From Puia sp. (GTDB taxonomy: Bacteria; Bacteroidota; Bacteroidia; Chitinophagales; Chitinophagaceae): a DNA stretch of 64,000 nucleotides. How positions within the stretch are numbered: the stretch's first letter is position 1; the number at the start of each line of letters is the position of its first letter. The DNA lies in NCBI GenBank assembly GCA_035499855.1, contig DATJXY010000027.1, forward strand, positions 7,489-71,488, written 5' to 3'. Shown piece by piece: positions 5,724 to 25,463 of this stretch. Made by a program: the position numbers and the translations under genes. The notes below the pieces were generated by a model. It was not told the origin of the DNA, did no database searches, and saw only the letters and a program-made list of their open reading frames with translations.

Positions 5724-5827
5724 GTGAATGGTCAATAGTGAATAATCATTCATGAGTCGTGAGACGTGAAAACAGAATATTCGCTAAGTCTAGAAAAGTA
5801 TTTCACGTTTCACAATTCATCATTCAC
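5724..5827. repeat. periodic palindrome, heptamer type (GTGAATG/GTGAGAC)
   Basis: GTGAATG GTCAATA GTGAATA ATCATTC ATGAGTC GTGAGAC GTGAAAA (5724-5772) and ATTTCAC GTTTCAC AATTCAT CATTCAC (5800-5827). Confidence 0.85.
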
Positions 5828-20271: not shown

Positions 20272-21228
20272 ATGGGAAAATTGGTCCGGATAGGAACAAG
20301 AGAAAGCCGGTTGGCTGTTTGGCAGGCAACTGAAGTAATGAATTTATTAGCCCATCAGAAAATAAAAGCTGAACTGGTTTTCATAAAGAGTGAAGGTGAT
20401 ATTGACCTGCAAACCCCCTTGTACGAAATGGGCGTACAGGGTATTTTTACAAAAAGTCTTGATATTGCTCTGCTGAATAATAGAATTGATATTGCTGTAC
20501 ATTCTATGAAAGATGTACCCACACAATTACCAAATGGAATCATACAGGCGGCAGTACTAAAAAGAGGAAACTCTAAAGATTTGCTTGTATATAGAGATGA
20601 ATTGGAGACAGTGAATCGTGAATTGTCAATGGCGAATGATAAGAAAAAAATTTCCAATTCATCATTTATTGTTGCTACCAGCAGCATCCGTCGTAAGGCC
20701 CAATGGTTGAATCGATACCCCGAACATCAAATAGAAAATTTGAGAGGCAATGTGAATTCCCGCTTGCAAAAGCTGAAAGAAAATAGTTGGAACGGAGCGA
20801 TCTTTGCCGCCGCAGGGTTGGAAAGAATTAATCTTCGTCCTGAAAAGGCCATTGAACTTGATTGGATGTTACCAGCACCTGCCCAGGGAGCAATCATGGT
20901 CGTTTGCAGGGAAAATGATTTGGACATATATAACGATTGCCGCCACTTGCATGATGATCGTACTGCTCAATGCACTAAAATAGAAAGAGATTTTTTGAGA
21001 GCATTACTGGGTGGCTGTTCTACTCCTATCGCAGCTTTCGCCGAAATAGAAAAAAATGAAATTTATTTCAGAGGAAATATTTTGACACCGGATGGAAGTC
21101 AAAAAGCAGAAATAGAAAAGAAACTGCCATTGGAAAAAATGAGCAATCTCGGCAAAATCGCTGCAGAGGAACTATTAATCAATGGCGGCAAAAAAATTAT
21201 AGAGCAATTCCATCATGCAGAAAAATAA
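20272..21228 (+). CDS. hemC: hydroxymethylbilane synthase (porphobilinogen deaminase)
   Basis: IGTRESRLAVWQA, DIAVHSMKDVP, ATSSIRR, LRGNVNSRL, GGCSTPI. Confidence 0.97.
   Translation: MGKLVRIGTRESRLAVWQATEVMNLLAHQKIKAELVFIKSEGDIDLQTPLYEMGVQGIFTKSLDIALLNNRIDIAVHSMKDVPTQLPNGIIQAAVLKRGNSKDLLVYRDELETVNRELSMANDKKKISNSSFIVATSSIRRKAQWLNRYPEHQIENLRGNVNSRLQKLKENSWNGAIFAAAGLERINLRPEKAIELDWMLPAPAQGAIMVVCRENDLDIYNDCRHLHDDRTAQCTKIERDFLRALLGGCSTPIAAFAEIEKNEIYFRGNILTPDGSQKAEIEKKLPLEKMSNLGKIAAEELLINGGKKIIEQFHHAEK
20596..20667. repeat. periodic palindrome embedded in frame in hemC
   Basis: ATGAATT GGAGACA GTGAATC GTGAATT GTCAATG GCGAATG (20597-20638); perfect 11-bp IR GATGAATTGGA (20596-20606) / TCCAATTCATC (20653-20663). 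Confidence 0.75.
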
Positions 21229-24031: not shown

Positions 24032-25000
24032 ATGCAGCGACGAAACAGAATTCTAAGGGCTGGTTCTTCTATCAGAAGTCTTGTTGCCGAAACTATTTTA
24101 ACTCCTGATGATTTTATCGTTCCGCTTTTTATCGACGAGGGGAAAAATGTAAAGACTGAAATTGTGTCCATGCCCGGATATTACCGGAACAGCATTGATA
24201 TTACTGTAAAAGAAGTTAAGGAGCTATGGAAACTGGGTTTGAAATCAGTGCTGATTTTTATAAAATGCGCGGATGAACTGAAAGATAATACCGGGAAAGA
24301 AGCATGGAATAAGAATGGGCTCATGCAGCGAAGCATCCAGTCTATTAAAGAAGCTGTACCGGAAATGGTGGTAATGACTGATGTTGCACTTGATCCTTAT
24401 TCATCTTTTGGACATGATGGCATCGTAAAGGGAAATGAAATTGTAAACGATGAAACTGTAGAAGCCCTTGTGAAAATGAGCCTGAGTCATGCCGAAGCCG
24501 GAGCGGATTTCGTCGCTCCCAGTGATATGATGGACGGGCGTATCGGATCAATCAGAAAAGGACTTGAAGAAAATGGTTTTATCAAAACGGGGATAATGGC
24601 ATATAGTGCCAAATATGCTTCCTGCTTTTATGGTCCTTTTCGTGATGCCCTGGATTCGGCCCCGGGTTTTGGTGATAAAAAAACTTACCAGATGGATTAT
24701 GCAAACCGGATTGAAGCCATCAAAGAAACAATAATGGATGTGGAGGAAGGAGCTGATATTGTCATGGTAAAACCTGCCCTAGCTTACCTGGATATCATCC
24801 GTGAAGTAAAAAATGCAGTGCATGTTCCCGTTAGTGCGTATAATATTAGCGGTGAATATTCAATGATTAAAGCAGCGGCTAAAATGGGCTGGCTAAATGA
24901 AGAAAAAGCAATTCTTGAAGTCCTGACTGCAATTAAACGCGCGGGAGCCGATTTGATAGCAACCTATTTTGCAAAAGATGCAGTGAAACTGATATCGTGA
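24032..25000 (+). CDS. hemB: porphobilinogen synthase (ALA dehydratase)
   Basis: DVALDPYSSFGHDG, APSDMMDGRI, FYGPFRDAL, MVKPALAYLD. Confidence 0.97.
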   Translation: MQRRNRILRAGSSIRSLVAETILTPDDFIVPLFIDEGKNVKTEIVSMPGYYRNSIDITVKEVKELWKLGLKSVLIFIKCADELKDNTGKEAWNKNGLMQRSIQSIKEAVPEMVVMTDVALDPYSSFGHDGIVKGNEIVNDETVEALVKMSLSHAEAGADFVAPSDMMDGRIGSIRKGLEENGFIKTGIMAYSAKYASCFYGPFRDALDSAPGFGDKKTYQMDYANRIEAIKETIMDVEEGADIVMVKPALAYLDIIREVKNAVHVPVSAYNISGEYSMIKAAAKMGWLNEEKAILEVLTAIKRAGADLIATYFAKDAVKLIS

Positions 25001-25463
25001 AAGGTGAATGGTCAATGGTAAATGTATCCTACTATGAAAACATATTGTTAACCTCAAACTTTATGCTATATTTCTTATTCTTAATCACCATAAAATGGAT
25101 ATCGATCGGGTTTCAAAAAAACTTGTACTCTCCTGTTATAGATTAACAAATGGATTTCCTACTGAAGAAAAATTTGGGATAGTTTCGCAAATGAGGCGAG
25201 CTGCTTTATCAGTACATTTAAATATTGCTGAGGCTGCTTCCAGAAAATCAGGTATTGAAAGAAAGCGGTTTTTTGAAATCGCCAGGGGATCTGTAATTGA
25301 AATCGATGCTGCATTTGACATAGCTTCCGATCTTGATTATTAAAAAAAAATAAATTCAGATTCACTTAGGGAAGTCATCATCAAATGCTTTAAAATTCTA
25401 AGCTCTTTAATCAATTCAAAAAATATAATTAATCCTGTTCACCATTGACCATTCACTATTCAC
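24997..25463. mobile_element. heptamer-arm inverted-repeat cassette carrying a four-helix-bundle gene
   Basis: Left arm GTGAAAG GTGAATG GTCAATG GTAAATG (24997-25024); right arm TGTTCAC CATTGAC CATTCAC TATTCAC (25436-25463); 16-bp perfect core; mobility is inferred, not shown. Confidence 0.6.
25068..25448 (+). pseudogene. four-helix-bundle protein (23S rRNA-IVP family), in-frame TAA at 25341-25343
   Basis: IFLILNHHKMDI...FPTEEKFGIVSQMRRAALSVHLNIAEAASRKS...FFEIARGSVIEIDAAFDIA; reading frame continues past TAA as KKINSDSLREVIIKCFKILSSLIN (helix 4). Confidence 0.8.

Follow-up and report, generated by a model that had tools for sequence, protein, structure and literature searches.

An old heptamer palindrome in the reading frame of hemC in a Puia genome

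The window (the whole 64,000-nt stretch of Puia sp. DNA that was analysed) contains a hydroxymethylbilane synthase (porphobilinogen deaminase) gene, hemC, in which part of the coding sequence is written in 7-nt units like those of intergenic repeats. This locus raises the question of whether a dispersed repeat has become part of a core enzyme, and whether its presence there indicates that the repeat moves. The gene (20272-21228, + strand) is an open reading frame of 318 amino acids. The protein contains the PF01379 cofactor-binding domain (2e-68) and the PF03900 C-terminal domain (1.2e-17) by Pfam, and matches solved PBGD structures over its full length (1YPN, E = 1.3e-53; 1YPN/1PDA, ~1e-53); both the two domains and the structural homology identify it as a porphobilinogen deaminase (HemC). 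The genome (4.51 Mb, 39.5% GC) has a single hemC copy, which sits in an intact haem operon, hemA-C-D-E.

The 5′ arm of the unusual segment (20597-20638, + strand) was comprised of six phased heptamers (ATGAATT, GGAGACA, GTGAATC, GTGAATT, GTCAATG and GCGAATG), as had been described in an earlier, sequence-only reading of this DNA, with the peptide lying within residues 109-132. This arm encodes DELETVNRELSMAN with a 7-aa period, corresponding to three heptamers, and includes a match to the regular expression for the family at C27:28099-28126. An A-rich spacer, ATAAGAAAAA (20639-20648, + strand), forms the loop of the hairpin and codes for part of DKKK; similar A-rich centres are present in the hemC loops of relatives. 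The 3′ arm (20649-20669, + strand) contains three decayed reverse-complement units (AATTTCC, AATTCAT and CATTTAT; unit consensus NATTCAC), encodes the peptide ISNSSFI and stops one codon 5′ of the conserved ATSS.RR active-site strand. The previously reported inverted repeat was confirmed as perfect over 11 bp, with the left half, GATGAATTGGA (20596-20606, + strand), 100% complementary to the right half, TCCAATTCATC (20653-20663, + strand). A 12-mer at the right half, CAATTCATCATT, recurs at 5800-5820, in the right arm of an intergenic element. The 72-nt segment was, as claimed, free of stop codons (0 found), and the 86 nt from 20590 to 20675 folds as a single hairpin of -19.8 kcal/mol (z = -2.2).

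Only 3-4 of the 9 units are near the consensus: the left arm combines 3-4 good units with 2 decayed ones, and all 3 units of the right arm are decayed. When the codons of hemC were shuffled 1000 times, 25/1000 shuffles produced a perfect inverted repeat of 11 bp or longer, and 0/1000 a run of at least three family heptamers. No direct repeat flanks the inverted repeat (TATATAGA on one side and ATTTATTG on the other) and there are no conserved termini around the element; the locus thus does not demonstrate an insertion event. An identical loop was found in four proteins that are 99-100% identical to this HemC and are encoded on at least seven contigs from several sources, and the segment is therefore, as far as can be judged from these sequences, real and no assembly artefact.

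To place the segment among the repeats of the genome, we scanned tolerantly for at least three phased GT[G/C]A[A/G][T/A/C]N units, with a block-shuffled genome as the control. The scan returned 154 arrays, compared with 5 in the shuffled copy. The arrays group into 112 loci, of which 100 (about 90%) lie outside crude open reading frames, though these frames make up 87% of the genome. The two-armed loci have a forward arm followed by a reverse arm in 35 cases and the opposite order in one. In the gaps between co-directional genes, 37/70 loci start no more than 10 nt from the upstream stop codon. Membership was defined as at least three phased GT[G/C]A[A/G][T/A]N units followed by reverse-complement units within ~200 nt; the hemC copy has both, in the + arm then - arm polarity of the family, and its fold energy of -0.26 kcal/mol per nt is inside the range of the family loci (-0.08 to -0.43). 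An intergenic member at 5724-5827 (C27:13212-13315, -29.8 kcal/mol) likewise consists of a forward arm, a spacer and a reverse arm. The hemC units had been matched in the sequence-only reading to the arrays at 5724 (GTGAATG, GTCAATA, GTGAATA and further units) and 25004 (GTGAATG, GTCAATG, GTAAATG), and this match holds; together with the arm polarity, it supports the proposal that the segment belongs to the heptamer-palindrome family of this genome. When the window was scanned against Rfam at gathering thresholds, no match was obtained.

Long pure GTCAATG arrays in the genome have 11 units (C45:17906-17982) and 10 units (C103:31116-31185), and 11 is the largest unit number reached. Across Bacteroidota, at least one triple heptamer unit was present in 31/201 genomes, distributed patchily over distant families, with a few genomes containing 20-50. 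In G041, the genome of locus L033, forward arrays of GTGAAAC, GTGAGAC, GTGAATC and GTCAAT-type units recur at a spacing of ~2.6 kb along contig C7 (~305000-394000), as if separating tandem paralogous genes.

The same 7-nt coding is not confined to the HemC of this genome. The sequence-only reading had counted 13 residues between the flanking conserved blocks in E. coli and 25 here, and the structures bear this out (FVS to IVGTSS, 13 residues in 1YPN/1PDA). E. coli HemC has NNYDSLDALPAGS at the position of the insert. Compared with E. coli and most GTDB relatives, the loop here has 11 extra residues, and most of the relatives with the same genus code have a non-repetitive loop of 15-18 residues, e.g., YKNDPSIFAQKDHVAH. 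Short, non-repetitive loops were also found in the outgroups and in genome G003, in which the hemC loop DNA showed no periodicity. G003 itself contains 120 triple-heptamer matches, and has an array ~95 nt upstream of the start of its short-loop hemC (C433:9969-9988, locus L003). The expectation that relatives would have a shorter, non-repetitive loop thus held for E. coli and most GTDB relatives, but not for ~120 metagenomic relatives in the protein database (64-84% identical), which have heptamer-type loops of 17-57 residues; some of these are named by their source as Chitinophagaceae, Ferruginibacter or Puia. The left side of their loops reads GEWSMVN, GELSVVN or VNGQWS, and the right side (F/L)TI(H/D)(H/N)SP(F/L)T, immediately 5′ of the conserved IATSS and coded by ATTCACC/ATTGACC arrays. 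These peptides are exact translations of GGTGAATGGTCAATGGTGAAT and its reverse complement.

The loop DNA of eight relatives (L031, L032, L033, L048-L051 and L002) was analysed, and 8/8 had heptamer arrays on both arms; the counter-example named beforehand, a long loop with no DNA periodicity, did not occur among them. The arrays were near-perfect in L033 (GGTCAAT three times, then ATTCACC four times), L049 (4 units on the left, 10 on the right) and L051 (GTGAATG, GTGAATG, GTCAATG and GTGAATG, then CATTCAC, CATTCAC, AATTCAC and AATTGAC). L050 had heptamer arrays on both arms; L031 had the variants GGCGAGT and GGCAATN, L032 had GTGAGTT/AACTCAC on both arms, and L002 had GTGAAAC with CTCACGT. The arrays of L001 and L048 were decayed, the latter resembling the hemC copy here. 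The loop of G001 (KRETSNE...LTSHVSRLT) was negative by the peptide regular expression, yet its DNA consists of clean GTGAAAC/GTGAGAC arrays; this expression under-calls heptamer-derived loops, and the loop classes assigned with it (LR and --), those placed on the HemC tree among them, are lower bounds. In the L033 assembly (a Chitinophagaceae MAG), hemD (HEM4) appeared as two open reading frames of 81 and 153 aa (L033:3965-4686), for which a frameshift, an error of assembly or a further insert could be responsible.

Translation has left its mark on these arrays. In eight loop DNAs (L002 left out), the in-frame T[G/C]A was TCA in 16/16 cases, and off frame it was TGA in 23/40; the count is partly tautological for an intact open reading frame, and serves here solely to illustrate how frequently units read TGA when off frame. 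The difference indicates that the arrays were shaped by being translated. As this hemC is the sole copy in the genome, lies in an intact haem operon and has TCA at every in-frame T[G/C]A, its segment must, on this sequence evidence, be translated. In the AlphaFold model of the protein (mean pLDDT 87, pTM 0.86), residues 111-120 of the left arm were predicted, with moderate confidence, to be helical, the spacer and right arm (residues 121-132) were of low confidence, and residues 133-136 formed a strand leading into the SS.RR motif. The model supports the earlier suggestion that the repeat has given HemC new peptide in one of its surface loops.

The age of the copy was assessed by comparison with P0002, a protein 84% identical to this HemC with a loop of the same length (KGEWQSVNDELAMVNSKKKMSNSSFT). 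By manual count, identity was ~58% in the loop and ~86% elsewhere. Since the loop length is equal in the two proteins, the hemC copy predates their split, and by the same alignment it drifts faster than the enzyme. Among close relatives, P0044 was without one IHHSPLT unit that is present in P0092, and the loops of P0040 and P0073 differed by 14 residues; such steps of seven residues are expected if heptamers are gained or lost in threes (21 nt), so that the frame is kept. Nothing of the ancestral short loop was visible inside the long loops, which indicates that the arrays replaced the loop and did not split it. The description of the segment as an in-frame insertion therefore stands as to frame, but not as a simple addition of residues.

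A maximum likelihood tree built without the loop columns required at least 4-5 changes between short and long loop states. Two short-loop groups with similar loop sequences were placed in different starred clades of this tree; a single short-loop clade was not rejected by the AU test (p = 0.08). On the number of changes in the tree, the HemC loop could have been colonised several times independently. Near-perfect arrays are present in L033 and L051, lineages with only 65-70% identity in HemC. This is hard to fit to simple vertical decay and points to some continuing homogenisation through slippage or repeated re-seeding. In the genome studied here, the comparisons indicate an ancient element, passed on vertically and decaying by point substitution, given that the same loop is heptamer-coded in ~120 related HemC proteins; they give no evidence of current mobility. 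The presence of the repeat in a coding sequence had been put forward as the best internal sign that it moves; this argument was not sustained, given the decayed state of the copy, the unchanged length in the 84%-identical relative and the shared coding across the ~120 proteins.

A scan of the protein set of this genome found the two-arm peptide signature in hemC only (1 match, against 0 in reversed proteins). Two other genes nevertheless contain family units. In a gene for an IcmF-like fused mutase (1176 codons), (GTCAATG)3 lies in frame at C54:41288-41315 and encodes NGQWSMVN. This array is common to G001, G003 and G004, and the length is unchanged relative to homologues; distant homologues have NGLEAEVE or KGIWNEVN at the site, of the NG.W..VN type, and the native sequence may here have been converted to heptamers. 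Similarly, the gene for an RsmB-like methyltransferase (C125:4277-4515) contains a perfect reverse-arm array (reverse complement GTGAATGGTCAATTGTGAATG; C125:4495) that encodes SFTIDHSPF directly before the FD..ADLPCSG motif and gives ~3 additional residues compared with relatives. A second, weak forward array is present 200 nt upstream in this reading frame.

Some members of the family are large. At 24997-25463 (C27:32485-32951), between hemB and hemL, inverted arms of four units (C27:32485-32512, +; C27:32924-32951, -) surround a PF05635 (23S_rRNA_IVP) gene (match C27:32583-32891, 93 bits). RNase III removes the namesakes of this family, which occur in 23S rRNA intervening sequences. The genome has seven PF05635 matches, of which four, the gene between hemB and hemL among them, lie between inverted arms of 7-nt units, one has an array on one side and two have no visible array. 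Further cassettes of this four-helix-bundle family are located at C11:44160-44607, C56:100298-100820, C103:7230-7760 and C57:2473-2683; the cassettes each have their own unit (GTGAATG, GTCAACC, GTCAAAG and GTGAGAT/AGGAGAT), only one arm was found at the C57 locus, and the arms of the C11 pair are in reversed order (- then +). PF05635 as a required partner of the arrays was considered and rejected: it is present in 161/201 Bacteroidota genomes with or without arrays, with no discriminating correlation, and G203, with 27 arrays, is absent from the list of PF05635-positive genomes.

We consider it probable that the hemC segment is an old, decayed heptamer hairpin that replaced a surface loop, has been inherited vertically and translated, and has not moved recently. 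The family consists of tandem GT[G/C]A[A/G][T/A]N hairpins (forward arm, A-rich spacer, reverse arm) that fill the intergenic space of a Chitinophagaceae-like genome. In an ancestor, a two-armed array would have taken over the DNA for the variable surface loop with which domain 2 of HemC begins and replaced the original loop of 16-17 residues, possibly by insertion or by templated copying of a two-armed hairpin; later changes in length may have arisen by replication slippage. The ribosome would read the array through as a filler peptide, [G/D/R]E[W/L]S[M/T][V/A]N on the left and of the HSP(F/L)TI type on the right. Selection would act as a filter, letting only frame-preserving changes persist (21 nt, i.e., three heptamers or 7 aa) and restricting heptamers with T[G/C]A in frame to TCA. 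The arrays end at the conserved strands, DLLV on the left and IATSS on the right.

A serious, if less probable, alternative is that the arrays grew in situ with no mobile element, a native near-heptamer being amplified by slippage, strand-switching producing the inverted arm, and growth continuing to the limits set by selection. Unit number and sequence differ in every copy, there are no conserved ends or target-site duplications, and both the IcmF-like array, which left the length unchanged where distant homologues already read NG.W..VN, and the RsmB-like single-arm array, with its addition of only three residues, fit such growth; so do the 7-aa length steps and the intergenic arrays that adjoin stop codons (37/70 within 10 nt). 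Slippage has, moreover, been proposed for heptanucleotide repeats (Mrazek et al. 2007, as summarised in PMC4679880). However, slippage alone yields direct arrays and no inverted arms, and leaves the 35:1 polarity unexplained, and neither the patchy occurrence of the family unit in distant Bacteroidota families (31/201 genomes) nor the PF05635 genes enclosed by the same architecture is readily accounted for. A recent jump into hemC in this genome, which would amount to current mobility, is a different matter: the family is abundant and includes some long perfect arrays, such as the 11 GTCAATG units at C45:17906-17982, but with a degenerate copy, an identical loop in four strain-level variants, the length kept in the 84%-identical relative and the position common to ~120 relatives, we regard it as very improbable.

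The new loop could also have acquired a use, either as an mRNA hairpin that serves as a processing or regulatory site of hemA-C-D-E (e.g., an RNase III target), or as a peptide with a function in HemC. The persisting hairpin potential (z = -2.2), the perfect 11-bp stem kept in an otherwise decayed copy, the comparable stems that hold PF05635 genes and the retention of the loop in most of the clade are consistent with this, while the far faster evolution of the loop (~58% against ~86% identity elsewhere), its range of 17 to 57 residues, its absence in long form from some lineages and the low model confidence at its centre make it unlikely. That the periodicity arose by chance, by selection for a heptad peptide or as an assembly artefact is scarcely credible. 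The model does predict a helix-like peptide of 7-aa period (ELETVNRELS); the period in the DNA, however, is 7 nt and not merely 21 nt, the units match the intergenic family, no codon shuffle among 1000 gave the run, the reverse-complement arm is a property at the DNA level, and the identical loop recurs in independent assemblies.

The reading of the segment as an old, inherited replacement of the loop leaves room for a bolder proposal, which we hold to be doubtful at present: a sequence-specific process, through a trans-acting writer or conversion and not necessarily involving PF05635, might install and renew GT[G/C]AAT-type hairpins genome-wide, and the HemC loop might have been colonised several times in Chitinophagaceae. 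If so, this process would explain the at least 4-5 state changes on the tree, and arrays that are near-perfect despite the deep divergence of their lineages would be the product of ongoing renewal and not of inheritance. This would make heptamer hairpins a class of transposase-less, self-propagating DNA able to overwrite coding loops.

The locus provides a clear case, beyond Rickettsia, of dispersed repeat DNA incorporated into a core enzyme, and it ties intergenic hairpins, PF05635 cassettes and coding inserts into one Bacteroidota repeat system. With ~120 homologues whose loops are written in the same 7-nt units at varied lengths and in varied variants, the comparative record is unusually rich. 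The origin and turnover of heptamer arrays, the capacity of loops for arbitrary peptides and the sufficiency of frame and stop-codon filters can be tested from this record. A literature search found papers on heptamer repeats and on Rickettsia palindromic elements (RPEs), none of them on translated heptamer palindromes in Bacteroidota, and no paper on a system that joins intergenic heptamer hairpins, PF05635 cassettes and coding inserts.

Among known systems, the element shares with MITEs and REP/REPIN sequences the form of short, non-autonomous, dispersed hairpin repeats and an accumulation at gene 3′ ends. MITEs are recognised by terminal inverted repeats with a target-site duplication; here the 11-bp inverted repeat is present and the flanking direct repeat is absent. 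Unlike in both groups, neither the termini nor the internal sequence is conserved in the heptamer family, and its units are without the GTAG/CGTC tag described for REP/REPIN in PMC3733652. Tandem heptamers outside genes offer a closer parallel. Cyanobacterial STRR heptamers were reportedly described by Mazel et al. in 1990. Like STRRs and heptameric SSRs, the family consists of tandem 7-nt units, up to 11 in number, that are over-represented relative to chance and mostly non-coding. Heptanucleotides are the commonest class of long simple-sequence repeats in most genomes, with polymerase slippage proposed as their source (Mrazek et al. 2007, as summarised in PMC4679880), and the TAACTGA-type repeats are direct tandem, mostly intergenic and patchy in distribution, including some Bacteroidota, with lengths that vary between relatives (PMC4679880, PMC4692102); one set of two heptamer units lies inside a putative PurC gene (PMC4679880). 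STRRs and heptameric SSRs are, however, described as direct repeats outside genes, whereas the family here has two hairpin-forming inverted arms of fixed polarity, with one copy, translated, constituting an entire enzyme loop in a large clade. Its units probably differ from theirs in sequence as well.

The parallel with RPEs drawn in the sequence-only reading holds for the nature of the element and its effect on the protein. In the account of Ogata et al., as summarised in PMC10969869, RPEs are a palindromic family that is mostly intergenic, with some copies in frame in unrelated housekeeping genes, where they add a fold-compatible peptide. As in that account, the hemC element is a palindrome read through in frame and tolerated in an enzyme loop, and it resides in an open reading frame at a fold-compatible surface position. 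RPEs, as described there, form families of ~100-150 bp, in each of which the consensus and the encoded peptide are conserved, in contrast to the 72 nt of variable 7-nt units with no full-length consensus found here, which on this description set the element apart from RPEs. It also differs in having a unit variant that changes with lineage, length steps of 21 nt and a Bacteroidota host. The hemC element is thus closest to RPEs and to cyanobacterial STRR heptamers, and is a member of neither.
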